Shown piece by piece: positions 7,216 to 43,710 of a stretch of 64,000 bases of DNA. Both the position numbers and the translations under genes were made by a program. The DNA is from Myxococcales bacterium (GTDB lineage Bacteria; Myxococcota_A; UBA9042; UBA3505), in contig CAUZEG010000001.1 of NCBI GenBank assembly GCA_963578775.1, forward strand, positions 22,041 to 86,040, in the 5' to 3' direction. Each line of letters opens with the position of its first letter. Within the stretch, counting starts at the first letter, position 1. A model generated the notes under the pieces. The model was not told where the DNA came from. It was given only the letters and a program-made list of their open reading frames with translations, and searched no databases.

Positions 7216-7246
7216 TGGTTGTCTCCCTACCGGGCGATAGCGGGGG

Positions 7247-12470: not shown

Positions 12471-12515
12471 GGCTTTGAAACCAAATGAGAGTCGACGGTT
12501 CTCTAAACACGCAAC

Positions 12516-17234: not shown

Positions 17235-17252
17235 TAAACCCGACGAGGAAAC

Positions 17253-18536: not shown

Positions 18537-19786
18537 CGCTGTGCTCCAAGGGACTGAATGTCCGAAATCAACGCATCCATATCGCCCGTTCGTTCGTTTT
18601 TCTCCGACTCGGCGGTCAAGGTCCAGTGAAGACCCGCGTCAGACACCTCTACAAGCGGGAACGTCTTCACCGTGAATGGTTCGGGCCATACGGCGGCAGA
18701 GAACCCGGCGTCTCGCAGGCTCCGTAGAACGGGTTCGACGCCAGCCCTGCTTCCCTTGACGTAGATTACGGGTCGATTGGTTTGCCCGGCACCACAACAG
18801 TCGGCAAGGGCATGAAGGTCAATTGCAAAACCAGCGGCCGGAAGGTCCAGGTTGAAGCGGGTCAGGAATCCGTCGTAACGTCCACCGGCCAGAATGGCCT
18901 GCCCCGAGCCGGGCGCGAAGGCCTCGAATACGACACCTGAATAGTAGGAACGGTCGCGGATTTCGGTGAAATCCAGGCGAATCATTTCTGGGGCGCAATT
19001 GGAGTGCAGTATATTGAGCCGTTGGCCGAAGTCTTCAAGAGCCGACTGTACTGGTTGGGGCCAGTCGAGCTGTAGCCAGGCCGGGAAGTCGGACGAGATA
19101 CCACTGAGCATGGGAAGCCGCGCTGCTAGTCGAATGTCTCCGCCGTGTTCTTCGACCATTTTGACCACATCATCAAATGCTTTACGGCCCAGGGCATCGA
19201 CCACCGGTTCGCGTTGCGCAGGTTCCGTCAGGCCGATTGCAGAGAGGAGAGCGTTGAGGACGGCGTTGTCTCCCACGGTGAGGATCGCATCTTCCAGGCC
19301 CAGCGCTGATAAACATTGCAGCGCAAGCTGTAGCATTTCGACATCGGCCTCCGGGCCGGTCCAACCGATCAGCTCGATTCCAGTGTGGGTTCGCTCTCGG
19401 CTCGCCAAGGCGTTTCCTCCGGTAACTCGATAAACGGGACCCGAATAGGATATCCGTACCGGTCCTTCTGCCGGTTTATGCATGGCGAGGTGTCGACCCA
19501 CCTGTGGGGTCAGATCGGGCCGCAGAATCAGTGGGTGGCCTGTCTCTGGGTCCACAAGATGGAATAGTTGCGCACGGCGGTCCCCGCGAAGAGCCGTGGC
19601 GAGTGCATCGTATCTCTCAATCAACGGTGTGCGGATCAGTCGATATCCATGTTGGCGGAACTCGTGCAGGAGGAGTTGCTCGGTGTCGGCCATCCATTCG
19701 GCGAGATCAGCCGGGTAATCACGGACACCCAGAGGGAGCAGCGCGTGACCGGAATGGGGGGAGAATGTATCTACGTCTGCTTGCAT
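18533..19786 (-). CDS. hisZ: ATP phosphoribosyltransferase regulatory subunit (HisRS-like)
   Basis: Class-II aaRS-like core without an anticodon-binding region; the hisZ-purA pairing is conserved; 4-bp overlap with purA. Confidence 0.7.
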   Translation of the reverse strand: MQADVDTFSPHSGHALLPLGVRDYPADLAEWMADTEQLLLHEFRQHGYRLIRTPLIERYDALATALRGDRRAQLFHLVDPETGHPLILRPDLTPQVGRHLAMHKPAEGPVRISYSGPVYRVTGGNALASRERTHTGIELIGWTGPEADVEMLQLALQCLSALGLEDAILTVGDNAVLNALLSAIGLTEPAQREPVVDALGRKAFDDVVKMVEEHGGDIRLAARLPMLSGISSDFPAWLQLDWPQPVQSALEDFGQRLNILHSNCAPEMIRLDFTEIRDRSYYSGVVFEAFAPGSGQAILAGGRYDGFLTRFNLDLPAAGFAIDLHALADCCGAGQTNRPVIYVKGSRAGVEPVLRSLRDAGFSAAVWPEPFTVKTFPLVEVSDAGLHWTLTAESEKNERTGDMDALISDIQSLGAQR

Positions 19787-19820
19787 TACTTGAGGATTCT
19801 CGCGGGAGCCATCATTGCGT

Positions 19821-27460: not shown

Positions 27461-29590
27461 CTAAGGACTTATATCGACGCTCGATATGGTCTCATCACTC
27501 CATAGATTTACGTAATCCACTTCCCCGTATTTCGTGTTTTCGCCGGTTGTGACCTGGTTGGTCTGTACGCCGAGAACAATCGTATAAGAGCCAGCCTTGT
27601 CGGGGATAAAGGACGCCGTGGAACCAGTCGTAACGTTCAACTTTGCAGCACTGTCTGCGGGTTTGTCGATGATATACCAGGTATAACCGCTGGCCGTGAT
27701 ATGTGCGTCACCGGAGAGACTACCAAGGCCACTTAGTTGGATTTCTGTTCCTACAGGGGCCTCGTCGATTGGGGCGATAATCGCTGTCGGAAGAACAATA
27801 CCTGCGTTCGGTTGGTTGTAGCCACGAAGTGCGACATTCCATACGGATGTATCACCCGCAGGCGGATAGACGTCGTCGTATTCTATTTCCAGATTGGTAT
27901 GGGAAATGATGGCCTCGCCCTCCGCCTTGAAACGAACGGTGAACGGAAGGAGTGTGAGTGGCGGGACGTCGAATCCTACGCCCGATGCGACGCCGTCCAA
28001 CTCAAAATTGATGGGGATGCCAGCAAAGCCGGGCGGTTCCACAAGACGGACATCCGTTACCCGAAGTGTATCGAGCCCCTCATTGGCGATGATCATGGTG
28101 CGTTCCTTCTTTTCGCCTTCCGAATGGAACTGTACGTAGGAAGCGGCGACGCCACCCTGGGACGGATACACCTGTATCAACGGCTTCGTGATACCACCTC
28201 GCAGGGGTACTGTGATTTCGGATTGGTAGGGGTTCTCATAGCTGATGACGAGATCGCGGTCGAAACCCTCTGCGGTAAATATGGTCAGGCCTTCGCCACT
28301 CGTTGGCGCTGCATAGTGCACGATTACATTCATCGAGTTCTGGGGTTGGATGGCGTAAAAAGAATCGAATGGCTTGGGATCTTCGCCCGGCCGTTGGACT
28401 TCCAGATAGTACGCGCCATATGCATCGTCGGGTTCGACGGCACCTTCTTCCAGGCGCACGGATCCTGGGCCTTCGTTGTATAGATTGATGATCTTCGAAG
28501 ACGCATCCCCAGCGCCGACAATATCGGTGAAATCCACGTATCCTTTCGCCATATCCTCGTAGCTCAAGACGAGCTTTCCTTCCTTGACGTTGCTTTTTAA
28601 TTCCACATTTGTGATGGGGTGCACAGGATCGTTGGTATGAACCTGAATGATGACGTTGTCTGGTCCCTGATCATCGATCGGTTGGTAACGAACCTCAAAC
28701 GTCAGCTTGGCTCCCGGGTTTGAGATTTGTGGCTGAATCACGCTACTTGGGGCGGGTTTATCGGTAATCGTGAATTCCGGGTTGGGATTCTTCAGGTCCA
28801 CATCGTAGAAGACCAGATCCTGGCTACCGTCGTTGACGATCTCGAACACCTGTGACTCCGGTTGAGCCGGCGTACCGTTCAGGTAGGTATAACTGGGGGG
28901 AAAGACCTGGACGGCAGCGGCTTCGCGCGGTGGCGTAAAGGCGATGAGATGCACTCTCTTATCCGGGTCGTTGGATTCGATTCGGAGGAACTGGGGAGTA
29001 CGCAGATCGGGAAGGGCCCCCGGCTCATAGCTCATCTGGAACTCCACCGTTTCAAAGGTGGAATTGGCGGGCAGTGTAAATGGCAGGTCATACGTGCCGG
29101 CACTCCATTTAACCTGGATGTCTTCGTTGCCCTTACAGGTGTAGGAGATAGAGTCATCCGCCCCGTTGCTACAATCGTTGCTCTGGACGCAGGTTTGAAA
29201 ACATCGGAGCCCGTCGCAATAACTCCCGGCTTTACATTCGGAGCTGCTTTCACAATCCCAGCCAACACATTCGCCGTTGTCACAGACAAAGCCATCGGCG
29301 CAGCCCAGATCGTCGGCGCAACCCATTGCCTCACAGATACCAGGTTCTAGCCGAAGTACACTCAGAACCAGGTCCTCACCACCCAGGTTTTGAATCACGA
29401 CACGAGCTGTCGCGGTCTGGCCCTGCCCAGTCACGAGTTCCGGGAAACTAAACACACCGGATTCCGCTTCTTCTTCGATGGTTATTTCCATCTGGCCGGA
29501 ATAGGTCTGACCAAATTTCCCGCCGCAAGCTGTGAGGACGAACAGCCCTACAAAGAGCATAAGGAAGTGAAAACGAATGTTCGGACGCAT
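27461..29590 (-). CDS. Large secreted lipoprotein (709 aa) with Cys-rich module, Ig-like (choice-of-anchor-D/ASH-like) repeats and a C-terminal PKD-like domain
   Basis: Lipobox LTACGG; CxxxxC-rich segment (residues about 85-150); repeated LxIxNxGxxxLxI beta-sandwich signatures; C-terminal GYTWYIIDKPADS...GSYTIVLGV. Confidence 0.6.
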   Translation of the reverse strand: MRPNIRFHFLMLFVGLFVLTACGGKFGQTYSGQMEITIEEEAESGVFSFPELVTGQGQTATARVVIQNLGGEDLVLSVLRLEPGICEAMGCADDLGCADGFVCDNGECVGWDCESSSECKAGSYCDGLRCFQTCVQSNDCSNGADDSISYTCKGNEDIQVKWSAGTYDLPFTLPANSTFETVEFQMSYEPGALPDLRTPQFLRIESNDPDKRVHLIAFTPPREAAAVQVFPPSYTYLNGTPAQPESQVFEIVNDGSQDLVFYDVDLKNPNPEFTITDKPAPSSVIQPQISNPGAKLTFEVRYQPIDDQGPDNVIIQVHTNDPVHPITNVELKSNVKEGKLVLSYEDMAKGYVDFTDIVGAGDASSKIINLYNEGPGSVRLEEGAVEPDDAYGAYYLEVQRPGEDPKPFDSFYAIQPQNSMNVIVHYAAPTSGEGLTIFTAEGFDRDLVISYENPYQSEITVPLRGGITKPLIQVYPSQGGVAASYVQFHSEGEKKERTMIIANEGLDTLRVTDVRLVEPPGFAGIPINFELDGVASGVGFDVPPLTLLPFTVRFKAEGEAIISHTNLEIEYDDVYPPAGDTSVWNVALRGYNQPNAGIVLPTAIIAPIDEAPVGTEIQLSGLGSLSGDAHITASGYTWYIIDKPADSAAKLNVTTGSTASFIPDKAGSYTIVLGVQTNQVTTGENTKYGEVDYVNLWSDETISSVDISP

Positions 29591-29697
29591 GTTGACCTCA
29601 TCAACGGATAATCAGGGACGTGGGTGGGAAAATTACCTTGGCTAATCTCTCTGCCTGTATCGGCATAGCCTACGAGTTTGAACTATCAATGCAAGCT

Positions 29698-32600
29698 TCA
29701 GGGCTGAATACAGAGGGTTTCATAATGCACTTCAATCTCCTGGCCAGGCTGCGGCATGCAAGCGCCATTCTCATCAAAGATGATACTGTTGGATGGGATG
29801 TCGAAGCTCCACCCCTGGTTGCACGGTACGCCATCAATTTTCACGCTGATGGAGTTTGGTTGGGCCAGGCGGGTAAGGAAAAACTGTTTCTTCAAGCCGA
29901 AGGCGATCTCACCGATTTCATCCAGAATACTGCTGTAATTGGAGGCGCAAATAGATGCGTTGACACCGCCTGTTTCCAGGGACACCTGTTGGTAGGTTGG
30001 CGCAGCATCGGCGGCTCCGTATTGGCTGTCACAGCCGCCCGGGACGTCGCCTACGATGGTATGGACGTGAATAAGATCTTCATTGGCGAACCCTTTCAGG
30101 TTTTTGAAGAAGTCGATATAGAAGCTCAGCTCGGCAGGAGACTGGTCCTCTTCATCCGAAATCATAACGATTTCAAGAGCCGCGTCCTCACGTAGGAAGC
30201 CCCAGTTGGCACCTCCGCAGTACTTTGTGGCGCCCGATACGTCGAGGGGATCCCCGTAGCAGCCGCCCGGTGAACAGGCCGCGTCGCTTCCGCAGGAGAT
30301 GGGATTACCCTGGGCGTCTTGCGCCAGATGCGTATTGGGAAGAGTCAGTGCCAGATAGGCGGCTTCAAGACCTTCTTCGGTGCCAGATCCGTTGTCTCCA
30401 ACATTCTTGACGTTGTTCGCAAACGCAGCCAGGCCATTGGGCGTCAGTGGGGTAACAAATCTCGGAGAGCCAAGAAAACGTCCACTGTCGTTGCCGATAT
30501 CCGTGGTGGTCACGGCGAGCTGATAGTTGGTGTTCCAGGCCTGGGCCGCTGCCACCATGCTATCGATGTTGTTGGCGATGTTGTTTTGCTCGTCGCTCAT
30601 GGAGCCGGAGTTGTCGACTACGAACAGGACGTCTACATCCTGGCCGGTCAGCTGGATGAACACATCGGTCTGTTCGATGTCATAGGTGCCTTCACCATGC
30701 ATGGGTACGGTAAGCGCCGGTATATTGGGATCGTCCGATTCCACAATCACCGTACAATGATCGATGCCAAGATTCTGTGGCACATACCGGACTTCCAGCT
30801 TCATTGGGCTTCCTTGAACCAGGACGCCCGGCAGCGGAGGACTGGAAATCAAGTCGAATTCGCTGCTGCAGCCATTATCAAGGTAGATATCGGTCACATT
30901 CAAGGGAGCGTTTCCCTTATTATAGATTGTAACCTCCGTATCCAATGAGGCGCACCCCACGGTAATCACCCCGAATTCAACCTCTTGTGGAATCACTGCG
31001 ATATCGCTGATTCCACTGGCTGCAATCAGGTTCGGATTTATCGAAGACGCGCCAGGTACCGCATCCGTGGGCGCCCACACGGCGTTTCCGTTGACGACGT
31101 CGAACATCTTCATATGAAGGAGGCCTCGATAATTGTCGAACTCCTCGCCAAAGATGCTGGCGTCGGGTGGGGGAGTAAACCGGATTTTAAGGGTTGAGGA
31201 TTCTCCCGGGTTAAGCACCATGGGCGGTGGAACCGCCAGCGCCATGAAGTTTTGACTACTCTGCGCCATCGAGCCTTCACCCGGTGTGCAACCGAAAGAG
31301 AATGGCCCAAAGCTCATGCAGTCAACGATTCGGAGCCGGTCCGGGTCTTCGAAACCAGGGATCTGGCATGCACCGCTTCCCACATTCGTGGCTTTTACGT
31401 CCATGATCTTGATCTTGCCATGGGGAACAATACCGTACTGTATGACCGGGGGAGAAAAGGCGACCTTACATTCCGCCGTTGCGGCAAGATGGGCGATCAT
31501 ACATTTCTGGATCGATGGATTGACCGGATCGTTGGTTTCTATATTCAGGGTGCCCTGTTTGGGGGGGCCAGTACCGAAGTTATTGTTAAAGGTCACCGTG
31601 AACTCGATGGCCGTTCCCGGCTCGACGGTTCCCGGTGCGGGGGGCGATCCCGTAGGAGCAAATCCTGGTACGGGTATGAGATTGAATCCATCTCCGTTCG
31701 CCGTGATACTTGAAACATGGAGTGGAGCGGACCCGCCATTGTACAGGGTAACAACCCTCTCGGTCATTAGACCGATGGCGGTGAATCCGAAGTCGACACA
31801 TCCGGAAGGTGTTATCAGTAGGGATGGGCTGTTTTCTCGTGCGTATACCGGGATCACCACGATGGGTTCGTCGGCATCATTGCTTGCAATGGACACCCCG
31901 CCTACGTTCACAGTACCCGAGCCGAAGGCCTCGGTAGGATCAAAAGCAACGCGCAGAACCAACGGCTCATTCACGGCCAGCAGGACCGGGAATGCGTTCG
32001 GTAGATCCAGGATTGTAAGACCAGCATTCGATCCCAGCGCAGGTTCAATGCTGGTTACCGTCAGTTCAATACTGCCTTGATTTACGACCAGGAGTTCGGC
32101 TTCGGCATGGCCGCCGACCTCTACGTAATCGAGATCGACCACCCCCGGGCTTACGACAATTTCCGGACCGCGCTCGCTCCCGGTTACGCCCACTTCGACG
32201 ACCGGAAGAACAGAGTTGGACAAGGTGATCAAGGCGACACCATGATCGGCATCACCACCGCTCGGATTATAGATGAAATCGACCGTGGCGCGCCCTTCCG
32301 GCGCCAGGTCAAAGGGAACTTGCAGCGTCACTCCGTCTACATCGTGGATGCTGCCAATGGAAAAGTCGGGACTCGCGTCTTCACGCCAGTTGAGCGAGGT
32401 AATCGTCAAAACATCCGAGCCGGCATTGATCAATTCGGCAGACTTGCCGGCCGGAGTTCCCCCGGCCGTTGGCCCAAAGTTGACCGGGTTGGGTAGCACC
32501 AGCAGGGATCCTTCCTGCGGGAGCGCACTGACCGAGATAATCACATCATCTCGGCCCGGTGATAGGGCATTGTGCTTGATCACAATGTTGTCAAAGTCCT

Positions 32601-32964
32601 GTACATCGTCAGTCGGTGTGTAGCAGACATTGACGACCATGGTCTCGCCCGGAGCCGCGGATAAATCATCCGGCAAAACCAGAGAGAAGTCACCTGTCAC
32701 GGACTCCAGGGCGACGCTAGACAGCTCAAGGAATGCCTCGGTACCCGAATGACTGATCGCCAATTCCTGACATTCGGTCTCGAACGGGGCTACGGCACCA
32801 AAGCTGATGAACTCTGGGCTAACGGAAATACCGATATCCTTGTCAATACAGAAACTGCCCGTGCAGTTGCCGGACCCGTTATTGTCAGAGCCACAGGATG
32901 CGAACAGGAATAGCAGGGAAATCAGTGTTGACAGAACTGTCTGTCGGCGGGCGACAAAGGCCAT
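29698..32964 (-). CDS. Giant secreted lipoprotein (1088 aa) with multiple Ig-like repeats and a C-terminal von Willebrand factor A domain
   Basis: Lipobox FASCGS; at least 6 LxIxNxGxxxLxV-type repeats; MIDAS motif DVLFVVDNSGSM near residue 770; Cys-rich C-terminal end. Confidence 0.65.
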   Translation of the reverse strand: MAFVARRQTVLSTLISLLFLFASCGSDNNGSGNCTGSFCIDKDIGISVSPEFISFGAVAPFETECQELAISHSGTEAFLELSSVALESVTGDFSLVLPDDLSAAPGETMVVNVCYTPTDDVQDFDNIVIKHNALSPGRDDVIISVSALPQEGSLLVLPNPVNFGPTAGGTPAGKSAELINAGSDVLTITSLNWREDASPDFSIGSIHDVDGVTLQVPFDLAPEGRATVDFIYNPSGGDADHGVALITLSNSVLPVVEVGVTGSERGPEIVVSPGVVDLDYVEVGGHAEAELLVVNQGSIELTVTSIEPALGSNAGLTILDLPNAFPVLLAVNEPLVLRVAFDPTEAFGSGTVNVGGVSIASNDADEPIVVIPVYARENSPSLLITPSGCVDFGFTAIGLMTERVVTLYNGGSAPLHVSSITANGDGFNLIPVPGFAPTGSPPAPGTVEPGTAIEFTVTFNNNFGTGPPKQGTLNIETNDPVNPSIQKCMIAHLAATAECKVAFSPPVIQYGIVPHGKIKIMDVKATNVGSGACQIPGFEDPDRLRIVDCMSFGPFSFGCTPGEGSMAQSSQNFMALAVPPPMVLNPGESSTLKIRFTPPPDASIFGEEFDNYRGLLHMKMFDVVNGNAVWAPTDAVPGASSINPNLIAASGISDIAVIPQEVEFGVITVGCASLDTEVTIYNKGNAPLNVTDIYLDNGCSSEFDLISSPPLPGVLVQGSPMKLEVRYVPQNLGIDHCTVIVESDDPNIPALTVPMHGEGTYDIEQTDVFIQLTGQDVDVLFVVDNSGSMSDEQNNIANNIDSMVAAAQAWNTNYQLAVTTTDIGNDSGRFLGSPRFVTPLTPNGLAAFANNVKNVGDNGSGTEEGLEAAYLALTLPNTHLAQDAQGNPISCGSDAACSPGGCYGDPLDVSGATKYCGGANWGFLREDAALEIVMISDEEDQSPAELSFYIDFFKNLKGFANEDLIHVHTIVGDVPGGCDSQYGAADAAPTYQQVSLETGGVNASICASNYSSILDEIGEIAFGLKKQFFLTRLAQPNSISVKIDGVPCNQGWSFDIPSNSIIFDENGACMPQPGQEIEVHYETLCIQP

Positions 32965-32989
32965 AGTGCGTTCTCTTTTTTTTGTTAGA

Positions 32990-35305
32990 TCAGGGTGAGA
33001 AAAATGGATTTACGTAGTTTGGGATAATCTTGAGACCGTTGAAACCGCTCCCGAAAATAGGTTGTACGGTTTGTTCCGGCCACGAGATCTCGCAAACCTC
33101 CCACATATCCTTTTCTGCGAGTTGAACGCCCTCTTTTGCCCACACTTCATTCCCGAATATGTACACACGAATCGTCGCTTGCGACGGCCCGAAACCGTTC
33201 GGATGCGCCGGTGATTGGGGGTCGTCCCAATAATGAACCCCAACCTTGTACGTGATACCGTTCTCAGGAACATTCAGATTCAGATTTTCCGGGCCGGCAC
33301 CATCGGTGTCGTCTCGGTCAAGACTCGGATTGTCGTCGATATTCGGGTCCAGTGATCCCCATTCCCGAGTGGGGAAGTACCAGAAACAATCGAAATCCGG
33401 GTCAAAGTAGCCATCGCCTTCACCATCGTTGTCAAGGTCCTGGCCATGTGCGAATTCGTGTACGAAGTGAAGATCCAGGTCGGTTCCCGCTTTGGAGCCT
33501 TCATCAAATTCATTGGTGTCGCCAGGCGTATGCCACAGCAGCTCGACGTGAATCGCTTCGTCAGGGGTCACAGTTACGATCCGGATCGCTGGCTCACAGG
33601 ATTCCTGGCCTGTTGAATCCCATACGGTGAGTTGGAAAACATACTCTCCCGCCGCGTTTACCGCGAAGACAGGATTGGGGAAGTTAACCCCTGGGATGAA
33701 CTGGCTGGTGGAGCCCTCTGGCTGGTCGATGGACCACTCATAGGAGTTGATCGACGCCCCACTGGTGGGTACGGACGCGGTTCCGTCCAGGTGCAACGTC
33801 GTCTGAGGAATGACATTGGTCCCTTCTTCGATCTCGATGACTGCCGTGGGACAAAGCACCGGCACGGAATAGCCGGTGATTTCCACAGGGACATACTCCG
33901 TGAAAGCATTCGTGCGAACAATAACGTAGCCACGATCGGGGATCGGGAGTCCATTTTCGTCTTTCGGCGATTCGGTGTCCGGCGTGATGAAGGTCACCGT
34001 GAAGGTCTCAAACAGGTTGACTGGTATCGACCAGGGTGCTTCCAGACTGGGTTCGGTTGCCTCTGGGCTTATATCGAAATTGAGGGAGAACTGGGCGCTG
34101 CTCGATGTAACGCCCAGGGAGCTCAGGACCGGATTTGTTGCATCGTCAGGCGTGGACAAGCGGACCTCATCGACCCGTAATGCCTCGTCGCCACAGGACT
34201 CGACCTGCACATCGATCTGGCTGATATTGCCGCCCTTTAGCTTGGCACCAAAATTCACATTGGACGGGACGACCTTGATACATGGGCCGGCCTCATTTCC
34301 AGAGAGATTGATTTCCTTCCCATCGATCGTGTTTTCACTATTTCCGTAGATGACCAGTTTTCCGTTGGCCGGTCGCTCTTCGTCCGGCGAGAACTGGATA
34401 TGGACATAGGCATTTTCCCCCTGTTCGATTTCCAGCGGCGGCTCGAATACGACTTCTTCATTGGCTCCAAAGACGGATTCCTCAACCACAAGCGAAAAGA
34501 ACTGATCACCGAGAACCAGCATGCGGAAGATCAGGAGTGTTCCACTGCCTGTGTTCAACAACAGTACGGGTTCTTCTGGGTTTTCACCGGCATGAACGTT
34601 CTTGAACACGACCTCACTGGGGTTCGTAACCAGGATGGGTTCGGCTTTCTGAATGAACACGGGAATGACCGCCTGGCCATTGCCCGGGGAGTTATTGATG
34701 AGTTCAAGTCCCAGAGCACGAGGGATTTCATCGGCCAGAGTATATTCCAACTCGATATGTACTTCGTCGGATAGCTCGGAGGTACCAAGTCCGGTTTCAA
34801 CGACTGTAATAGGCGCCGTCAAATCGGGATCGTCGCCAGGTACCATATGGGCGATGTCACCGCGGTAGATTCGATTAATGCGAACCCCGGGGTCGACCGC
34901 GACAGCCGCGCAATCGGCGTCACTGTTACAGGCGACGGTCAAGTCTTTACCACATACTCGTGCGGGTGCCTCTTCTGCTGAACACAGGGGAGCCGTGAGT
35001 CCCAGACAGAGCTCACTGGTCTTATAGCAGGTATCGACATTTAGCCGGATGGTCTCCAGCACCAGATCCTTGTTGCCCGTATTTTGAATGGTGAGAACTT
35101 CCGTTGCGGTCTGCGCACTGTCAAAGGAGATGACTTCTGGGATCGTCTCCAGGACGGGTTTCTCGTCCAGGGAGAACTTATCCTCTCCACCACAGCCGAT
35201 GGTCAGCATTATCGCCAACGGAACGACGATCGCTTTGAACAAGTTCGAGCGACCGGTTCCAGTACGTTGAGTTTGTTTCGGGCAGAAGAGAAAGGATCGG
35301 ATCAT
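32990..35305 (-). CDS. Large secreted lipoprotein (about 771 aa) with Ig-like/PKD-like repeats and an Asp-rich Ca-binding-like C-terminal domain
   Basis: Start taken at the internal Met (MIRSFLF), preceded by GGAG 7 nt upstream. Lipobox LTIGCGG; DLDNDGEGDGYFDPDFD motif. Confidence 0.6.
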   Translation of the reverse strand: MIRSFLFCPKQTQRTGTGRSNLFKAIVVPLAIMLTIGCGGEDKFSLDEKPVLETIPEVISFDSAQTATEVLTIQNTGNKDLVLETIRLNVDTCYKTSELCLGLTAPLCSAEEAPARVCGKDLTVACNSDADCAAVAVDPGVRINRIYRGDIAHMVPGDDPDLTAPITVVETGLGTSELSDEVHIELEYTLADEIPRALGLELINNSPGNGQAVIPVFIQKAEPILVTNPSEVVFKNVHAGENPEEPVLLLNTGSGTLLIFRMLVLGDQFFSLVVEESVFGANEEVVFEPPLEIEQGENAYVHIQFSPDEERPANGKLVIYGNSENTIDGKEINLSGNEAGPCIKVVPSNVNFGAKLKGGNISQIDVQVESCGDEALRVDEVRLSTPDDATNPVLSSLGVTSSSAQFSLNFDISPEATEPSLEAPWSIPVNLFETFTVTFITPDTESPKDENGLPIPDRGYVIVRTNAFTEYVPVEITGYSVPVLCPTAVIEIEEGTNVIPQTTLHLDGTASVPTSGASINSYEWSIDQPEGSTSQFIPGVNFPNPVFAVNAAGEYVFQLTVWDSTGQESCEPAIRIVTVTPDEAIHVELLWHTPGDTNEFDEGSKAGTDLDLHFVHEFAHGQDLDNDGEGDGYFDPDFDCFWYFPTREWGSLDPNIDDNPSLDRDDTDGAGPENLNLNVPENGITYKVGVHYWDDPQSPAHPNGFGPSQATIRVYIFGNEVWAKEGVQLAEKDMWEVCEISWPEQTVQPIFGSGFNGLKIIPNYVNPFFSP

Positions 35306-35837
35306 AAAAAACTCCAGGCAACGGAGGGCTATACGGTAAGACAATGTATACAGAAAAGGTGTTCGTAGACAGCGTACAAAATCCGGTAACAGAGGTGGAA
35401 CACAAAAGATTGCGCGCATACGTGGAGCGCGAAGTATAGGCAACCACGGGAAAGCCGGTCAATACCAGATCTGGCATCCTCAGGTTTTTCGGGCTGTAAT
35501 CACTATTCCGAGCAGCTACTACTCCATGCTCTTACGGTTGGTCGGGCGCGTTGTTTTGCCATCCGCGGCCCTGCCAGAACCATGAAAACGTCGTGATTTA
35601 GCGGGACCATCGTCGTTTTACGGTCGTAGACAGCAACAAGAAGACGACCTTTTGAAACAATCTGGACAGACGTAGAATTCAAGGTACAAACACGGTCGTG
35701 CATTGTAATTGTCATCCAGGGTTGACAGATGGATTGTCTTTCCTCGATGATGGCGCGCCAGTCGGGTTGATTTGTCTTAGGCACTTGGAAGTTCGTAGTT
35801 TGTTGGTTTCCTTTTCCAGTAAGTAGCGTGCCGTAAT

Positions 35838-37628
35838 ATGAAAACAGTCTTGAATTCTCCGAAATCTGTTCAACAAATCGTATATGCCGTTGTCATTTTG
35901 TGGCTGGTGTCCAGCCTGAGTATGCTTGGCTGTGATATGACGGCCAAGTTCCACGTCAAGCGTATTAAATTTGATCGTATGCAGGCCGTTTCGATGTTCC
36001 CGGCCGAACAAACGCCCAACGGATTCCAACGAGTCTGTAGCGGTCCGGCTCAGTATATCGAACTCAACATGAACTTCGTGTCCACCGAACGAACGGAGAG
36101 TGGTTCCGGTCAGGCCGAGGATCCGGATAAGGACCGTTCGATTCGCCCCGGCGACACCGTCGCAAAGGGAGCCGAACGTGAAGTGGTGGAAGAGGGTGTT
36201 ACGGTAACCAAGGACACGATTGACATCGAAATGGACTGTATCGAGTCCTATCCGGATACAGACCTTACCGGTGCCCAGTCCTGTTCCGATCTGTCGGAGC
36301 CTGCGTCTCCGATGCAGACCCTCAACTACAAAGAGATTACCGCCAGTCGGAACCACCATGTATCTGTTGCCCTTGTTATTGACGATACCGGCTCGATGCT
36401 CGGACTCGTAAATAAGGGGGATTACAAAGAAGAGCGTGCTGCGGCCACCGAGTGCTTATTGCTCTCCAATATCTCCAGTTATGGTTCCGATACCAAACGC
36501 TATCGACTGAGTGAGGGGAAAACCTTCATCAACAGTCTGAACGATGACGATGAACTCATCCTCTACAGCTATAACGGCGAGGCGGGAGTGAAAGTCGTAT
36601 GCACCGAGACGGCTGAGACCGAGTTGGAGCGTGCCAACAAATGTTTCGGTACGCGCCGAGATATTTTTGTGAACGCAACCAGTCAGCTCACCGGCACGGC
36701 CAGTGATCGCAGTAATCTGTGGGATGCAGCGGCCACGGCCTGGGATTTTCTGAAGGAAAAGGCGACGGGTGAAAAGCATATTCTGATCGTCAACGATGGC
36801 CCCGACACCTGTACGGCCAGCGAAGACTATCGGCGCGGCGTCCCGGCCTGTTCCGCAACGGGCTACGACGACTTCCTTGAGATCATCGAGGAGGAATTCG
36901 CAACGCACCAGATCCATGTGTCGTTCATCCAGTTTCAGGGCTACGCCTATCGCGACCATGATCCCCGCCAATGGGAAGCAGCCTGTCTGACGGGTGGTCA
37001 GTATGTGTTCATCAACAGCGAAGATCTTCCCCATGACGGGGGTGGCCTTCGTGACGCCCTACGCGAGGCATTTAGTAAGGTACGGTACACCTTGGCTGGA
37101 TCCTGGCGTGCCATCACCAAGGTACCCTCCTTCGAGAGCGATGATGTAGGAGGTGCTTCGCCGGGCGCCATGTATGCAGTCGCCGGTGGCATAACCTTGA
37201 ATGCCGGCACGATATTCAAGGATCCGTCTGTGTACCAGGCGTTCCGCATTAATGGTGCGGACGACAACCGGATGGCCCTTCGAAAGTCCTGTGCAGACCA
37301 TGCCGAATGCACCGCCAGCTTCGACGCCTGTCAAAGCCCCTGTTCACCCGAGTCGAGTATCTGTACGGATCATCGTACTGAGGTTGCAGCTGGGGAATTT
37401 TATATCGTTCCGGACGGTAGCGCGTGTACCGATGCTTCGGCCGGCATTTGTTGCGATGCCACGTGTTCGGATATCGCCGAATGTTCTGCTCCTGCGCCGA
37501 CCGCATGTACCGAAGACCAGGATTGTAACCAGGGTGATTTGTGTATCCCTGGCGATTCATTTTGTTCATGGCAGCTCTGCTCCGGCAACACGAGTGTTTG
37601 TTATGAATGCCACGAACAGGCCCCCTGA
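35838..37628 (+). CDS. VWA-domain lipoprotein with Cys-rich C-terminal module (CglB-like adhesin candidate)
   Basis: Signal + lipobox (SMLGCD); MIDAS motif VALVIDDTGSM; about 20 Cys in the last 120 aa; first gene of the Glt/Nfs-like operon. Confidence 0.6.
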   Translation: MKTVLNSPKSVQQIVYAVVILWLVSSLSMLGCDMTAKFHVKRIKFDRMQAVSMFPAEQTPNGFQRVCSGPAQYIELNMNFVSTERTESGSGQAEDPDKDRSIRPGDTVAKGAEREVVEEGVTVTKDTIDIEMDCIESYPDTDLTGAQSCSDLSEPASPMQTLNYKEITASRNHHVSVALVIDDTGSMLGLVNKGDYKEERAAATECLLLSNISSYGSDTKRYRLSEGKTFINSLNDDDELILYSYNGEAGVKVVCTETAETELERANKCFGTRRDIFVNATSQLTGTASDRSNLWDAAATAWDFLKEKATGEKHILIVNDGPDTCTASEDYRRGVPACSATGYDDFLEIIEEEFATHQIHVSFIQFQGYAYRDHDPRQWEAACLTGGQYVFINSEDLPHDGGGLRDALREAFSKVRYTLAGSWRAITKVPSFESDDVGGASPGAMYAVAGGITLNAGTIFKDPSVYQAFRINGADDNRMALRKSCADHAECTASFDACQSPCSPESSICTDHRTEVAAGEFYIVPDGSACTDASAGICCDATCSDIAECSAPAPTACTEDQDCNQGDLCIPGDSFCSWQLCSGNTSVCYECHEQAP

Positions 37629-37679
37629 TTGTTCTCCTATCTCTGTATTTCTCCGTAGTTCTTGAAAAAGGTCGAAACG

Positions 37680-38405
37680 ATGAAGAAAAATCGTATCGTA
37701 GCTCTCTTCACCATCGTACTACTTGCGTTTGGTGCTGTGTCGTTCAACCCGACGACCGGATTCGCAAAAGATACCAACTCGGTGGATGAGGCCTTCGACC
37801 TCTACTGGGCTAAGAAGCGAGCTATTCGTGTCATTCAGAAGCGTAAGTACCTCAAGGAAAATCGCACCGAGTTGTTTTTCCAGTCTGGTGTGATTCCAAA
37901 CGATGACTTTTGGCTGTACATCCCGATTGGTGTCGGGGCCACCTATTTCATCTCGGAAGCAATCGGGATAGAGTTGGAAGGATCCTACATCCATCCGAAG
38001 CGTAGTGAGTTGAAAGGCTTTCTGGAGGCTAACAAACTCGATGTGGGATTGCCGCAGTATCTTGTTTATCACGGTACCTTGAGCGGCATGTGGAGCCCGG
38101 CCCACGGAAAGATTGGCTTCTTCTCGTCAAAGCTCGTTCATTTTGATCTATCGTTTTCCTTCGGCATTGGTGTGATGGGAACCATGGTGGATCGGGATGG
38201 TGATGGGAAAGAATACGAGCATGCGCCGACCTTTACCGGCGCTCTTGGGGCGGCTTTCCGCCTCTGGTTCTCGGATAAGATCGCCATGCGAATTGGGTAT
38301 CGACACTATTTCCATCCGGCCGATCAAGAAGCTGTTGGTGGAGGCGTGTCCTTCCCGGCCGAGTTCTTTGTCGGTGCGAGCTTTCTCACCGGCGGAACGG
38401 AATAG
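37680..38405 (+). CDS. Small outer-membrane beta-barrel protein (GltA/GltB/NfsA/NfsB-like)
   Basis: Signal peptide IVALFTIVLLAFGAVS with an amphipathic alternating beta-strand pattern. ATG at 37680 with an AAAGG RBS is preferred over the TTG at 37662. Confidence 0.55.
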   Translation: MKKNRIVALFTIVLLAFGAVSFNPTTGFAKDTNSVDEAFDLYWAKKRAIRVIQKRKYLKENRTELFFQSGVIPNDDFWLYIPIGVGATYFISEAIGIELEGSYIHPKRSELKGFLEANKLDVGLPQYLVYHGTLSGMWSPAHGKIGFFSSKLVHFDLSFSFGIGVMGTMVDRDGDGKEYEHAPTFTGALGAAFRLWFSDKIAMRIGYRHYFHPADQEAVGGGVSFPAEFFVGASFLTGGTE

Positions 38406-38427: not shown

Positions 38428-40356
38428 TTGGACGCTTACAGCCAGGAAGACAGTATGAAAGCTCGCCAGAAACAACTTCTTGTTCCGTTCGTTATGTTGA
38501 CGCTGCTGCTTGTAGCCGGGACCGGTTCCGCCTTGGCGATTACAAAGGCGCAGATTATCCAGCTTACGGAGTTGGAGGTGCCCGCGTCTGTGATCCTCAA
38601 AAAGATGAACAAAGATAGAACGGTCTTCAAGCTTTCGCCGACAGAGATCTATGAGCTGAAGAAAAAGGGAGTGGATGCCGCAGTCATCAATTTGATGCTG
38701 GCCTCACCGGAGAAGTTCAAGACCAAAGGCGCGGCGACGACGACAACCCCAAAGAAGACAGAACCGACCCTCACTCCGGAGATGAAAGCGGCGCAAGAGG
38801 AACGTATGCGCAAAGAGGCCCAGCGCCTCGCCGAGCAGCTGGAGAAACGGCGAGCTCGTCAGCGTAGGGTCTATGCCCAGGGTGTTCTAAAGAAGGGAAA
38901 ACAACTGGCAGATAAGGGGCGTTTCGTTGAATCCATCAAGAAGTTTCAGCGGTTCCTATCGGATGGTTCTTTCGCTCCGGGCAGTGAGGAATACATTATT
39001 GCCCATTACGGAATTGCCAACGCCCTGGTGAAGGCCCGCTTGAATCAAGCGGCAGCGGAAACGCTGGTTCAGGTGTTGATCGCCTCCGATCAGTTGCGTC
39101 AGCTCGCTCCCGAATATGAAGCCCCGTTCTTTGTGCAGGCCTTTCATGACCTGCGCCGCCTTCGTCAAACCGTGGGATACAGTCCACCGGAGCTTGAACA
39201 ACTGACAACGATGGATCCGTCGTTCTTCGGAGCCAAGTTCCAGGACGAGTTCTATTATGTATTGGGCGAATTCTTCTACGAGTCGCAGCGTCCCGAGCGG
39301 GCCGAACCCTATTTCAATCGGATCTCCGACCGGAGCCCAGATTACCCGAAGGCGCTCTATCTGAAATCTCTTCAGCTGGTAGACCAACAGCAGTTCCGGT
39401 CGGCCGCGCAGATGCTGCAAGAGGTGATCATTTCGGCCGAACGAAACGGTACGGAGTACACGGTCATTGAACTTGCATATCTGGCGTTGGCCCGTATTGC
39501 CTATGCCAATAATGATTATTATGCGGCCGTCTTCTATTACAGGAAGATCAACGTGGATTCGGTTCGAGCACCGATCGCGTTTTTTGAGTCTGCCTGGTCC
39601 TATTTCCTGAACGGTGATCGGGTTCGTGCTCTGGGCATGTTCCACGCCTTGCATTCACCGGCTTTGAATCATTATTTCTACCCGGAACTCTGGATTCTTG
39701 AGGCCACAATCTATCTGAACAGTTGCCATTATAAAGAGGCCCGCAAGGCATTGGATATGTTCAATGATAGAGTGGCCGTACTTGCTATCCCGCTCACAAA
39801 ATTCCTCCGAAAGCAACGTAAGCCGCAAGATGCATACAAGGCCGTCATTGCTACGGTTGCTGGCTCACGAAACTACGATCTGCCCCCGGACCTGACCAAG
39901 CCGCTCCTCGCGGATGTACTGTTCTATAATTATTACCGAACGATTCGTCAGGTCGAAAAGGAACAGGTGATCTTAAACAAGGTGAAAGATGACCTGGCTG
40001 GTTTGAGGAATAGTCTGCTTGCCAAGCTTGCTACAGCTCGTGCGAGTACCGTCATTCATGCTGGCATTCGGGTACAGCAGATGTTACGCGCCGTGAAGGG
40101 CGATATTGATAAATACAGTATCAACGTCACGGAGATTGAAATTGACTTGTCCGCGATCGAGATGGAAGCCATTGATGAGGAGACCCGCCGTTTGATGGCA
40201 CAAGAGCAAGAACAGGCTGAAAAACGTCGAAAATCCGCAGAAGGAGCACTGGCGGTTGTCGGCTCCGATTCCATGGCTTGGCCCTTTGAAGGGGAATATT
40301 GGGTCGACGAGATTCCATATTATAGAGCGATGTTGAAAGATAGGTGTGCCCAATGA
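38428..40356 (+). CDS. Secreted TPR-like periplasmic protein (GltC/NfsC-like)
   Basis: Signal peptide (..LLLVAGTGSALA), Thr/Lys-rich linker, then an all-alpha TPR-like region; 642 aa; 13-bp overlap with the next gene. Confidence 0.5.
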   Translation: MDAYSQEDSMKARQKQLLVPFVMLTLLLVAGTGSALAITKAQIIQLTELEVPASVILKKMNKDRTVFKLSPTEIYELKKKGVDAAVINLMLASPEKFKTKGAATTTTPKKTEPTLTPEMKAAQEERMRKEAQRLAEQLEKRRARQRRVYAQGVLKKGKQLADKGRFVESIKKFQRFLSDGSFAPGSEEYIIAHYGIANALVKARLNQAAAETLVQVLIASDQLRQLAPEYEAPFFVQAFHDLRRLRQTVGYSPPELEQLTTMDPSFFGAKFQDEFYYVLGEFFYESQRPERAEPYFNRISDRSPDYPKALYLKSLQLVDQQQFRSAAQMLQEVIISAERNGTEYTVIELAYLALARIAYANNDYYAAVFYYRKINVDSVRAPIAFFESAWSYFLNGDRVRALGMFHALHSPALNHYFYPELWILEATIYLNSCHYKEARKALDMFNDRVAVLAIPLTKFLRKQRKPQDAYKAVIATVAGSRNYDLPPDLTKPLLADVLFYNYYRTIRQVEKEQVILNKVKDDLAGLRNSLLAKLATARASTVIHAGIRVQQMLRAVKGDIDKYSINVTEIEIDLSAIEMEAIDEETRRLMAQEQEQAEKRRKSAEGALAVVGSDSMAWPFEGEYWVDEIPYYRAMLKDRCAQ

Positions 40357-43300
40357 TGCTGTTCGGTCGAACCGTACGCACTTTGCTACTACTCTCCATT
40401 TGCGTGACCATTCCGTTGTCTGCGCACGGCCAGAAGAAGAAGAGCCGTGCTGTAAAGGCGATGAAAGCCGATATGGGTAAAAAGAAGGTCAAGGTCGAGG
40501 AACAAGGTGGTCCCGCGTCCCTGCAAGATGTCGAACAGGCCGCATTGGATGCCCAGGTCAAAGTGAACCTGGAACGAAAATCTACAATTCGTATGGACCA
40601 GATTAGCAAGATGGAGCGTTTGCTTCGTGACAACCCCCATTACCACAATAAGGTCGGTATTTATCACCGGCTGGCAGAAGCCAACTGGCAGGAATCAAAA
40701 TACAGATTCCTGATGAAAATGGACGACTTTCGGAACCAGGTGGACGCCTATGATGCGGGGACACTGAGTCGGGAACCGAAAATGCCGGACGAAAACTATG
40801 AGGTGGCGTTGGAGTTCTACCGTCGAGTTCAACGCCAGTTCCCGGATTATTTCCGTATCGATGAGGTAACCTATTATCTGGCGAAAGGTCTGCTTCTCGA
40901 GGGGAAGAATAAGAAAAACAACAACCTCACCCTTGAAGGAGTGTCCAATCTTTTGAAGGTTGTGAACACCTACCCCAAAAGCCGATTTGTTGCTGAAGCC
41001 TACCTCGCTCTGGCTGAGTACTATTTTGATAGAAGTATGCTCACACAGGCTCGCTTGAAGTATGAGCAGATCATCAACAACCATAAGCGCTCATCCATGT
41101 TTAACTATGCCCTCTATAAACTCGCCTGGGTGTACTATAACCAGAAGGAGATGGAACGTTCGGTCAAGACTTTCAAGAAGGTCGTGAAGGCTGTGACAAG
41201 TTCCGGGGTAGCGGCGAAGATCGAATTCCGCGATCAGGCGCTTAATGATCTGATCCGTGTCTACGCGGAAATGGACGATGGTTGGAAGTTGGCCAAGAAG
41301 TACTTCCTTACCCAGGTGTCAGAAGACGAGACCTATGTGAAGTTGAAGAAATTGGGCAGTCTTCTACTGGGGATGGATCGGGACGAAGAAGCTATCTCGC
41401 TGTACGAGCATTTCCTGAAGAAATTCCCAACGGACAAGATGTGCATCGCATGGTGGGATAATATCCTGAGCGTTCGCGTAGCCCAGGAGGATCTGGGCCA
41501 GCTTGAAAAAGATACCCGGCGCATGGTGGCGTTTATTGGAGCGAAGGGAACCTGGCGAAAAGCCCATTCTATAGATGATGAAGTACTGGAGAATGCCTAC
41601 AAGCTCGGCGAAGGGCGTATGCTGTGGATCGCCAATCAATACCATCGTGAAGCCCAGAGATTACGGAAGCAGAAGCTGTATTTCCGAGCGGCCGATCTCT
41701 ATGAGCTGTTCCTGCGAGAGTTCAATGACAGCGAGAACGCGATTCGCAAGAGTAAGAATGCCTACATGGTCAATTTCTACCTTGCTGAGATCCTCTCGGA
41801 CGAAAAGAAGGACTACAAAAAAGCGCTGGTGCAGTACGAGCGTGTTCTTGAGCGTGATAGAAAAGGTGAATACACCGAGGATGCGGCTCTGGGCGCGGTC
41901 TATTGTTATTACGAGTTGATGTACAAGAAGAATCTTCGTGAACGACCCCGGGGTGGGAAAACCATCGATACGGTCAAGTTGAGCGAAGAGGAATTGAAAG
42001 AGAGCGCCAAGCTCAAGAAGCGGAGCGACTTGGCACCGTTGGAGCAGGGGTTTGTTCAATCCGCCGATGCCTACGTCAATATCGTGCGTGAATGGCTTAA
42101 GGATCCGAAGGTCCGGAGAAAGAACCCAAAGCGTGGTGCGCGAATCCCAGAGATGATGTTTGTGGCCGCGGAGATGTTGTACAACCACGGCCAATATGAA
42201 GAGGCCGTCTCTCGACTCAAGATCATCTTTGAGGACTTTCCGCGACATGAGTTTGCGGCCTGGTCCGTCCAGATGCTGATCGACTGTTATGCCAAGCTGG
42301 CACATTGGGAGAAGGTCGAAAACTGGTCCAACAAGCTTATCAAGGCTCGAAACTTCAAGGTCTTAACCCGGAAGACTCTCAACAAGTTCCGCGCAATTGC
42401 TGTGGGTGAATTGGCTCGAGAGCATGCGTTGAAGAAGGAATACAGCAAAGCGATTTCCCAGTATAAGCGGGTGTATAAGGAATTCCGTCGCGCTCGAAAC
42501 ACGGACGATAAAGAGTTGGCGGCCAATGCCATATTCAACATTGCGGCCATCCATTACCAGGCGAGGGATATTCGCGCTGCCATTAAGACCTACGGGAAGA
42601 TGCGCAAAGAGTTCCCGGCAGCGGAAAAGGCACCGGAAGCACAATACTTGATTGGTGAAATATACGAGAGCCAGACGCAGTTTGTGGATGCAGCCAGGTC
42701 GTTCCTGGTTATGGAAAAATTCAAGTCGGATAGTAGGGCGGCGGATGCTATTTTGAATGCAGGCCTCATTTATGAAGCCGTAGATCGCCCGAAGGACGCA
42801 ATAAAGACCTTTGTGAAGTATCTGAGGCTATTCCCGAAGAAAAAGAATGCGGACAAAGTGTACTTTCGTATTGGACGGGTTCACGAAGATAGCGGTGGTC
42901 GTAGGAATCTGATCAGGGCCAAAGATCACTACATCAAGTTTATTAAGAGATACGCGTCCTCCAAGGTTCTGGTGGTAGAAGCTCACACCCGCGTGGGAGC
43001 GATTCTCCGTAAATTGAACGAAAAGCGAAACCGACGCCATGCCGAGCGGCATTATGGGAAAGCCCAAGTGGTATTTGTCGAGGTCGATCCCAAGGCGACA
43101 GGATTCAAGCAGGCCCAATATTTTGCAGCCCAGGCCAAGTTCGAATTGACCGAGTATTCCTATGCGGACTACGAGGCGATTTCCTTGGACAAGAAGACAA
43201 TGAAAAAGCTTGAGGGAATCAGGGAAAGGGTCACGAAGAAGGCCGAAGCGTTCAAGGCTGTGGAGAATGCCTACCTCTCGATCATGGCGGTCTACAAACA

Positions 43301-43691
43301 GCCACAATGGAATGCAGCGGCTCTGTTTCGTACGGGAATGCTCTATTATAACTTTGTGAACTTCCTCCTCGACGCACCGATTCCGGACGGACTCGACCTC
43401 GATACCGAGGATGCTTATCGTCTGTATCTGGAGCAGCAGGCTAAAATCCCACGGGAAAAGTCCCTGGTCGCGTTTGGTCTTGCTCTGAAATCAGCGCACC
43501 AGATGGAGGTATATAATGACTGGTCGAAGAAGTCGGCTATCTATGCCTCGAAGGTAAATCCCGAGGAATATCCGGTCTCGGATGAAAAGGCCGTACGTAG
43601 TGATCACACGCGCGATACGCTGGGCTCGGCTTCCCTTCTGCGTTATCTGAAGCGCAACAACATCGTCGTTGATATGGCGCCTGCCCAATAG
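40344..43691 (+). CDS. Large secreted TPR-repeat protein (GltD/AgmU/NfsD-like)
   Basis: 1115 aa; signal peptide followed by continuous TPR-like helical repeats. Confidence 0.55.
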   Translation: MCPMMLFGRTVRTLLLLSICVTIPLSAHGQKKKSRAVKAMKADMGKKKVKVEEQGGPASLQDVEQAALDAQVKVNLERKSTIRMDQISKMERLLRDNPHYHNKVGIYHRLAEANWQESKYRFLMKMDDFRNQVDAYDAGTLSREPKMPDENYEVALEFYRRVQRQFPDYFRIDEVTYYLAKGLLLEGKNKKNNNLTLEGVSNLLKVVNTYPKSRFVAEAYLALAEYYFDRSMLTQARLKYEQIINNHKRSSMFNYALYKLAWVYYNQKEMERSVKTFKKVVKAVTSSGVAAKIEFRDQALNDLIRVYAEMDDGWKLAKKYFLTQVSEDETYVKLKKLGSLLLGMDRDEEAISLYEHFLKKFPTDKMCIAWWDNILSVRVAQEDLGQLEKDTRRMVAFIGAKGTWRKAHSIDDEVLENAYKLGEGRMLWIANQYHREAQRLRKQKLYFRAADLYELFLREFNDSENAIRKSKNAYMVNFYLAEILSDEKKDYKKALVQYERVLERDRKGEYTEDAALGAVYCYYELMYKKNLRERPRGGKTIDTVKLSEEELKESAKLKKRSDLAPLEQGFVQSADAYVNIVREWLKDPKVRRKNPKRGARIPEMMFVAAEMLYNHGQYEEAVSRLKIIFEDFPRHEFAAWSVQMLIDCYAKLAHWEKVENWSNKLIKARNFKVLTRKTLNKFRAIAVGELAREHALKKEYSKAISQYKRVYKEFRRARNTDDKELAANAIFNIAAIHYQARDIRAAIKTYGKMRKEFPAAEKAPEAQYLIGEIYESQTQFVDAARSFLVMEKFKSDSRAADAILNAGLIYEAVDRPKDAIKTFVKYLRLFPKKKNADKVYFRIGRVHEDSGGRRNLIRAKDHYIKFIKRYASSKVLVVEAHTRVGAILRKLNEKRNRRHAERHYGKAQVVFVEVDPKATGFKQAQYFAAQAKFELTEYSYADYEAISLDKKTMKKLEGIRERVTKKAEAFKAVENAYLSIMAVYKQPQWNAAALFRTGMLYYNFVNFLLDAPIPDGLDLDTEDAYRLYLEQQAKIPREKSLVAFGLALKSAHQMEVYNDWSKKSAIYASKVNPEEYPVSDEKAVRSDHTRDTLGSASLLRYLKRNNIVVDMAPAQ

Positions 43692-43710
43692 GGATTGGCG
43701 AGGTACGAAT

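Follow-up and report, generated by a model that had tools for sequence, protein, structure and literature searches.

Three very large lipoprotein genes lie side by side on one strand of a 64,000-nucleotide stretch of DNA (the window), facing away from a compact set of genes that resemble the Glt gliding platform of myxobacteria, and the question they raise is whether their products are working parts of that platform or surface proteins that happen to be encoded next to it. The window belongs to a 105.5-kb metagenome contig (ENA ERZ27247711, ~54% GC) whose host is an uncultured marine myxobacterium-like organism; the genes are named here A (771 amino acids, aa), B (1088 aa) and C (709 aa). The balance of evidence inclines us, with modest confidence, to regard A, B and C as outer-membrane-anchored surface lipoproteins that together serve the adjacent Glt-like platform as its adhesins. 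Two lines of evidence carry this reading: the fold and remote homology of a C-terminal module in B, and the conservation of the arrangement among related contigs.

The genes themselves are well delimited. Three co-directional minus-strand open reading frames (ORFs) occupy positions 27461-29590 (709 aa), 29698-32964 (1088 aa) and 32990-35443, and a separate gene call on the source contig returned products of 771, 1088 and 709 aa. Gene B accordingly covers 29698..32964 and gene C 27461..29590, while gene A is assigned to 32990..35305. The upstream limit of A was settled by comparison with L090 (L-numbers denote the relative loci that were fetched), a relative that comes from a TARA Oceans assembly, is 87% identical and has a 1-nt indel between TTG 35443 and ATG 35305. 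Because of this indel the stretch 35443-35305 must be non-coding, so that A starts at ATG 35305 and the spacer to the opposing genes is 532 bp; an 817-aa reading of A from TTG 35443 is ruled out by the same indel together with the gene calls. Each translation contains a signal peptide followed by a lipobox, LTIGC/GG in A, LFASC/GS in B and VLTAC/GG in C (slash after the lipidated Cys), and the residue after the lipid Cys is Gly in all three. Lipoboxes are also present in the A, B and C orthologues on other contigs, that of A (LTIGC) being conserved, and the lipobox Cys of B is invariant in six B homologues. These findings bear out the claim of an earlier note on this DNA, which had described three minus-strand lipoproteins of 709, 1088 and about 771 aa, each with a lipobox. 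All close homologues of the trio are unnamed, or carried as "hypothetical protein", in the source databases.

The spacers within the trio are short (25 bp between A and B, 107 bp between B and C), and a promoter/terminator scan found no terminator-like site above chance between the three genes. From its sequence the set may plausibly be read as one operon; the divergently encoded operon of the earlier note is to that extent reasonable. Downstream of the trio lie lexA, recA and genes for a transglutaminase-domain protein and a phosphofructokinase, all unrelated, and we confirm the observation that the trio itself includes no enzyme or transporter, lexA and recA being the next genes downstream.

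The C-terminal module of B (residues 760-1088; 29701..30687, minus strand, as are all features of A, B and C given here) is the most informative part of the trio. It bears a MIDAS motif (metal ion-dependent adhesion site), D-N-S-G-S, read from the translation at residues 784-788 (30601..30615), in which the D and both S residues are nearly invariant in 110 module homologues; a Cys-containing loop follows at residues 891-916. An AlphaFold model built on the alignment of those 110 homologues (mean pLDDT 95.1) has an alpha/beta core of von Willebrand factor A (VWA) type flanked by strand 5-11 and C-terminal strands 268-324, that is, a VWA fold inserted in a small beta domain made of N- and C-terminal strands. 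In a Foldseek comparison with the Protein Data Bank (PDB), the top 44 matches were integrin beta chains, including 3fcs_B (E 1.5e-9 to 6e-8, TM 0.4-0.47), and the module as modelled is clearly an integrin-beta-like VWA fold. Fold comparison alone succeeded in this respect, since the module, searched as a profile against PDB sequences, gave no match. The Pfam VWA models remained sub-threshold as well, at 14.2 bits for PF00092 (cut-off 23.8) and 17.2 bits for PF13519 (cut-off 27), so that the VWA domain with MIDAS DNSGS previously noticed in the 1088-aa protein is upheld by motif and fold rather than by these models.

Remote homology places the module near two known kinds of adhesin. Against NF052240, the model of Bd0875-type MIDAS adhesins (cut-off 700), B scored 48.2 bits at full length and 52.4 bits as module; against NF033765, the CglD model (cut-off 400), it scored 35.9 and 37.5 bits, respectively, the module aligning to CglD profile positions 633-875. 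Such weak matches recurred throughout the 110 module homologues, in 109 for the Bd0875-type model (best E 1.1e-20) and in 106 for the CglD model. Of the 229 homologues returned by a search with the module, most are stand-alone proteins 330-400 aa long that come from Myxococcota, Bdellovibrio and other groups and usually lack any Pfam entry. The model of CglB, NF033757 (cut-off 200 bits), matched none of A, B and C.

In B this module sits at the end of a long stalk (residues 25-759; 30688..32892) composed of at least five immunoglobulin (Ig)-like domains of choice-of-anchor-D/ASH/HYDIN type, with a Cys-containing segment near residues 497-560. The choice-of-anchor-D model NF012200 matches in five stretches at 127.9 bits (cut-off 45), and PF22544, PF15780 and PF22073 (HYDIN-Ig, ASH and Cep192_D4 models) also score above their cut-offs. 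Domains of this choice-of-anchor-D kind are characteristic of exported surface proteins, which lends some support to a surface location of the trio; the family is a generic one, however, and has no functional meaning alone. Full-length close homologues of B are rare; B-type proteins were found across Myxococcota in a scan of one genome per species, the nearest named relatives being metagenome-assembled genomes (MAGs) of Myxococcota and Bradymonadia.

The second line of evidence is genomic. Every protein of the window was run by BLASTP against the ORFs of the fetched loci, and hidden Markov models (HMMs) derived from orthologue sets were used for the same comparison. A block in which genes for a GltD-like protein, a GltC-like protein, an outer-membrane barrel and a 596-aa lipoprotein stand opposite A, B and C was recovered on seven contigs, with B identities of 39-100% and GC contents of 51-69%: the window contig, L090 (87%), L002 (55%), L086 (a frameshifted assembly) and L006-L008 (39-40%). 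The outer gene order has meanwhile changed. In L006-L008 recA does not follow lexA, and a PCC-domain gene that comes after the GltE-like gene in the window (45603-46322, plus strand) is found beyond lexA, on the opposite strand, in L006 (17780-18652) and L008 (17436-18404), its displacement implying rearrangement around a conserved core. A further contig, L004 (34%), has B together with an A-like gene and a third protein of Ig-like type, and is too short to see further. The tie to the Glt-like operon that the earlier note had put forward is thus sustained, when examined by co-occurrence, as an arrangement kept on seven contigs of a close clade.

Individual contigs show variations of their own. 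Upstream of B, L006 contains a tandem duplicate of A (5178-9737), both copies being 42-44% identical to A of the window. In L091, where an island lies between A and B, that island comprises acetyltransferase, ParE and PIN toxin-antitoxin and MgtC genes; B is split there by a frameshift, and convergent Ser/Thr kinase and WD40 genes occupy the place of C. In the Myxococcaceae and Cystobacter loci L025 (13481-17460) and L026 (12692-16591), two Ser/Thr kinase-like genes in tandem come after a distant B-type protein that combines Ig-like repeats with a MIDAS module, which makes a conserved context of another kind.

A comparable association is found outside the clade, in another lineage of phylum rank. 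In a Bdellovibrionales MAG (L042) and in Bdellovibrio sp. GCA_016187935.1 (L087), a stand-alone B-type module directly precedes a barrel gene and a GltC-like gene. The L087 locus (10001-20866) encodes in order a 408-aa MIDAS lipoprotein, the barrel, the GltC-like protein, an 86-aa protein, MotA/ExbB, two ExbD, TPR proteins of 932 and 209 aa and a 634-aa FHA protein, and from its gene content is a putative compact gliding operon with AglRQS-like genes. It recalls the gliding cluster Bd1473-Bd1483, in which Bd1483 is a lipobox MIDAS protein (PMC2277423, PMC2797640, PMC11003981). Taken with the conserved adjacency in the close clade, the Bdellovibrionota operons support a functional link of the trio to the Glt-like operon.

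Genes A and C encode related proteins of more composite structure. In A, residues 1-38 (35192..35305) make up the signal peptide and the lipobox, Cys38 being the lipidated residue, and are followed by a first Ig-like domain that contains a Cys-rich insert with six Cys (residues 93-132; 34910..35029), by a choice-of-anchor-D/Cep192_D4-type Ig-like domain (residues 219-325; 34331..34651; NF012200 48.6 bits against a cut-off of 45, PF22073 42.3 against 35.5), by a K319L-like PKD domain (residues 499-569; 33599..33811; PF22352 34.8 bits, cut-off 27) and by a C-terminal acidic beta-sandwich of TerD-like fold (residues 575-771; 32993..33583). C is distantly paralogous to A and co-linear with it but has no TerD-like domain: BLASTP aligned the two at 9e-07 at the N-terminus and at 4e-04 across the C-terminal third, the Cys-rich insert and the PKD-like stretch included. 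Its Cys-dense module has 12 Cys (residues 86-152; 29135..29335) and its PKD-like domain (residues 615-683; 27542..27748) aligns with the PKD domain of A while remaining sub-threshold (PF22352 14.1 bits, E 0.048). C falls below all domain cut-offs, with 26.3 bits on NF012200 against the required 45, and its orthologues were found in L002, L006-L008 and L090. A strand signature of the type LxIxNxGxxxLxI is present in all three proteins. The Ig-like repeats and PKD-like domains attributed to the trio at first reading therefore stand for A and, as regards the Ig-like repeats, for B, whereas C reaches the cut-off of neither; the Cys-dense module is confirmed in both A and C.

The C-terminal domain of A deserves separate mention. 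It contains one DLDNDG motif and a loop, LDRDDTDGxGPEN, that is nearly invariant in the alignment of its homologues; of these the last 197 residues of A recovered 119, typically proteins of 280-340 aa in which the domain is combined with PKD. The domain, which usually follows PKD, is represented in Phycisphaerae and Caldilinea MAGs besides Myxococcota. It shares its fold with the calcium-binding TerD (PDB 2qz7, 2kxt) at 14-17% identity. At E up to 0.1 Pfam reported no TerD match in A, and among the 119 homologues no Pfam entry covers the domain, some matching only the adjacent PKD family. The earlier note had seen here a DxDxDG Asp-rich, calcium-binding-like domain; its acidic character holds and the fold is TerD-like, but there is no DxDxDG repeat array, only the one DLDNDG, and a calcium-binding repeat of thrombospondin/COMP type was rejected in favour of the TerD-like fold. 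TerD proteins are cytoplasmic stress proteins. The version in A differs in being exported, in its fusion behind PKD within a lipoprotein and in going unmatched by the Pfam TerD model, and we regard it as a putative calcium binder.

The opposing plus-strand genes resemble, in their content, the outer-membrane part of the gliding machine. First comes the 596-aa Cys-rich lipoprotein (35838..37628), with MIDAS-like DDTGS and TDGPDTC motifs; next a GltA/GltB-type outer-membrane beta-barrel (OMP_myx_plus, 37662..38405; TIGR04565 82.3 bits, cut-off 60), a GltC-like TPR protein (38428..40356; NF033756 149 bits, E 1.7e-43, equivalog cut-off 450), a 1115-aa TPR protein (40344..43691) that appears GltD-like from its size, position and TPR content, with matches of TPR/YbgF/BamD type only, and a GltE-like TPR lipoprotein (43669..45192; NF033758 118 bits, E 3.9e-34, cut-off 225). 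The 596-aa protein is one of a family, counted at 199 representatives, in which DxSGS and TDGPDTC are conserved and for which neither Pfam nor NCBIfam gives an informative match; in every contig seen (window, L002, L006-L008, L086, L089, L090) the family member is directly followed by a GltA/B-type barrel gene. In an hhalign comparison this family aligned with the B module at 79% probability, over the VWA core only, and nothing relevant came of searching PDB sequences by profile with the 596-aa protein. From its motifs and position it may be the platform's own adhesin. It had been called CglB-like; the MIDAS-like DDTGS is indeed present, but the protein and 75 sampled homologues gave 0/76 matches to NF033757, and the assignment is rejected at the sequence level.

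Another VWA-type protein is encoded in the window. A 1064-aa product (51518-54712, minus strand) carries an N-terminal MIDAS, IDTSGSM, and a VLLMTDG strand, and adjoins minus-strand genes at 55255-57672 whose products have prepilin and PilV-type N-terminal methylation motifs. The earlier designation as a PilY1 VWA protein agrees with the N-terminal DTSGS motif and the context, though no Pfam family was matched.

Between the two sets of genes, the 532-bp divergent intergenic region (35306..35837) contains two promoter-proximal blocks conserved with L090, one of ~200 bp adjoining the start of the 596-aa gene and one of ~190 bp upstream of A, separated by ~160 bp that are not conserved. Inside the latter block, ~130 nt upstream of the start of A, lies a promoter-like TTGACC-N18-TATACT (35433..35462, minus strand), both hexamers of which are identical in L090; the count of consensus matches in the promoter scan was not above chance. 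In its conservation pattern the spacer looks like two separate promoter regions, and the 394-bp shared control region of the earlier note must be replaced by a longer spacer in which shared regulation is unsupported. A riboswitch or structured leader was also considered and dismissed, as the Rfam search of the spacer detected no family at E up to 1 and the leader fold was not better than shuffles (z -0.72).

How the trio might work can be framed by analogy with the known gliding adhesins. On a ~700-residue Ig-like stalk, B would carry a MIDAS head like that of integrin beta, of the type seen in CglD and Bd1483, and this head would use a metal ion to bind ligands of the substratum or of prey. 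A, with its Ig, PKD and TerD-like domains, and C, with its Ig, Cys-rich and PKD-like parts, would serve as paralogous accessory stalk proteins that stabilise or extend a complex with B, and could make that complex calcium-dependent: the TerD-like fold of A, and the strongly acidic character of A, B and C, suggest a parallel in this respect with the calcium dependence of CglD. Force, or exposure at the cell surface, would be controlled from the Glt-like platform (GltC-like protein, barrel and 596-aa lipoprotein), on the pattern of CglB and CglD of Myxococcus xanthus; the position of Bd1483 suggests a like arrangement in Bdellovibrio. CglB, a VWA lipoprotein adhesin of alpha-I-like type, acts together with outer-membrane proteins of GltA/B/C type and is loaded in the GltABCHK platform (PMC9946355). 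In a bolder version, which we think unlikely, A, B and C would constitute one heteromeric, calcium-dependent, integrin-like surface adhesin, a "split CglD", with the beta-I-like head on B, the calcium-type domain on A and Cys-rich stalk elements on A and C, loaded and exposed by the Glt-like platform together with the 596-aa lipoprotein. If this were true, the lineage would possess its own solution to focal-adhesion-type gliding or prey attachment, in a window that encodes no CglB or CglD equivalog.

A number of observations weigh against coupling of the trio to the platform, and several of them favour an alternative in which A, B and C are generic surface or matrix lipoproteins, part of a coat, a biofilm or a substrate-binding layer, that act independently of the Glt-like operon and owe their adjacency to inheritance. 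The Ig-like part of B matches a very large, heterogeneous family. The unrelated lexA follows C on the block contigs (L086 ends before that position), and its co-conservation means that part of the synteny is plain inheritance. Around the B-type homologues of 24-30% identity in Myxococcaceae, Cystobacter, Archangium and others, neither BLASTP nor the clade HMMs revealed any Glt-like neighbour, the sensitivity of the HMMs being adequate because the same models detected the Bdellovibrionota genes; in L088, moreover, a stand-alone MIDAS module occurs in an unrelated context. The footprint against L090 disclosed no regulatory element shared by the two divergent units, in keeping with the two separate blocks of the spacer. 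In L091 (1-11356), A and B (~50% identical) are parted by the ~6.6-kb island and C is missing; the GltC and GltE scores lie far under the equivalog cut-offs, though the homology is significant; and the 64-kb window contains neither AglRQS-like motor genes nor GltF-K. The concern voiced in the earlier note, that these might be ordinary members of a generic family, is accordingly justified in part, the Ig-like part and the MIDAS module both being broad families and the module appearing also in unrelated contexts, while the link within the close clade still stands. What tells against independent surface lipoproteins is that the adjacency has persisted from GC 51% to 69% and down to 39% identity, while recA and the PCC-domain gene moved, and that the same type of MIDAS module is independently tied to barrel-GltC genes in Bdellovibrionota. 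We consider the generic reading possible, if on the unlikely side.

Two other explanations retain the platform or the adhesin and assign them a different purpose. The trio could be a prey-contact or predation set like Bd0875, devoted to attachment to prey rather than to gliding. The remote relationship of the B module to the Bd0875-type model is in accord with this, and Bd0875 acts at the predator-prey interface (PMC11003981); the PilY1-like VWA protein with its minor pilins is encoded 16 kb away. The nearest named relatives of B, as noted, are Myxococcota and Bradymonadia MAGs, and these groups include predators. The score on the Bd0875 model is nonetheless only 48-52 bits against a cut-off of 700, and a Glt-like platform as genomic partner corresponds to Bd1483 of the gliding cluster, the deletion of which gave no invasion defect (PMC11003981); a predatory role seems quite improbable to us. 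Still less credible is the proposal that the neighbouring operon is Nfs-like, concerned with spore-coat assembly, and that the trio organises a polysaccharide coat or matrix during differentiation. The lack of motor genes nearby (64-kb window) is compatible with it, as is the order barrel, GltC-like, GltD-like, GltE-like, which we take to resemble that of the M. xanthus nfsA-H operon. Yet GltC and GltE are the models matched best, the operon here begins with a VWA-like lipoprotein whereas we know of no VWA adhesins associated with Nfs, and nothing in the window is related to sporulation or exopolysaccharide export.

In the remainder of the window, the left 23 kb encode housekeeping functions unrelated to the trio, including pyruvate dehydrogenase, a 2-oxoacid oxidoreductase and lipoyl synthase, and the right side carries NuoH/I, GlnII and cytochrome genes of the same unrelated, housekeeping character. 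Some of these products are of unusual build. A NuoH homologue (48649-50661, minus strand; 670 aa in total) has a ~290-aa N-terminal extension, the adjoining NuoI-like protein an additional RnfB-like C-terminal part, and a 1115-aa multi-domain c-type cytochrome (60349-63696, minus strand) matches SoxX-like, cbb3-type, cytochrome c7 and MtrC/MtrF-like domains; one 2-oxoacid dehydrogenase cluster has two paralogous pyruvate dehydrogenase E1-alpha genes (3793-4965 and 7247-8356, both minus strand).

If A, B and C are indeed the adhesin set of the Glt-like platform, the locus bears on a standing problem in surface motility. VWA/MIDAS lipoproteins such as CglB, CglD and Bd1483 are the substratum-touching parts of the myxobacterial and Bdellovibrio gliding machines, and how such adhesins are loaded onto the outer-membrane platform is the problem in question. 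Here the platform genes and a full candidate set of adhesins stand side by side and are kept so on seven contigs, which makes interaction partners predictable and testable. The theme of Glt-linked VWA adhesins is an already known one, and the trio is neither a new kind of system nor surprising to a specialist. What is new is the Ig-stalk form of the MIDAS module, its grouping with two paralogous partner lipoproteins, and the fixed position of the trio opposite a compact Glt-like operon that begins with a different VWA-like lipoprotein. One type of MIDAS module is thereby seen to be used in three ways, by itself as a lipoprotein, on a stalk of Ig-like domains and, thirdly, in other contexts. 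The analysis also brought out two sizeable families that have no annotation, namely an exported TerD-like domain linked to PKD and the Cys-rich, VWA-like lipoprotein of 596 aa.

Among known systems the closest comparison is with CglD, likewise a large, Cys-rich lipoprotein with a VWA domain bearing a DxSxS MIDAS, an integrin-beta-I-type structural match, a link to calcium and a tie to Glt. The best structural match reported for the CglD VWA domain is in fact integrin beta3, 3FCS_B, and calcium dependence has been described as well (bioRxiv 10.1101/2023.10.19.562135). CglD is described as needed for calcium-dependent gliding and as stabilising focal adhesions. B nevertheless fell short of CglD equivalog membership (36-38 bits, cut-off 400), and the two differ in architecture: CglD has an N-terminal COMP/thrombospondin-type DxDxDG repeat array, a motif without counterpart in B, the N-terminal part of which is a choice-of-anchor-D stalk, with calcium-binding-type and Cys-rich parts located on A and C. 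The trio is also encoded beside Glt-like genes, whereas to our knowledge cglD in M. xanthus is not.

With Bd0875 and Bd1483, in which the MIDAS/VWA fold is inserted in a beta domain contributed by both termini (PMC11003981), the modelled B module shares its inserted VWA layout. Membership of the Bd0875 family failed (48-52 bits, cut-off 700), and the lipobox of Bd0875 runs straight into its module in a protein of ~380 aa, whereas in B a stalk of ~735 residues intervenes between Cys24 and residue 760. B differs from both proteins in having two partner lipoproteins, and the window differs from operons of Bd1483 type in that the head position is held by another VWA-like family, that of the 596-aa protein. 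CglB, finally, offers a functional model for B and for its 596-aa neighbour alike, although neither matches the CglB model. By analogy with these systems, B probably works in the manner of CglD and Bd1483 while being a member of neither family.

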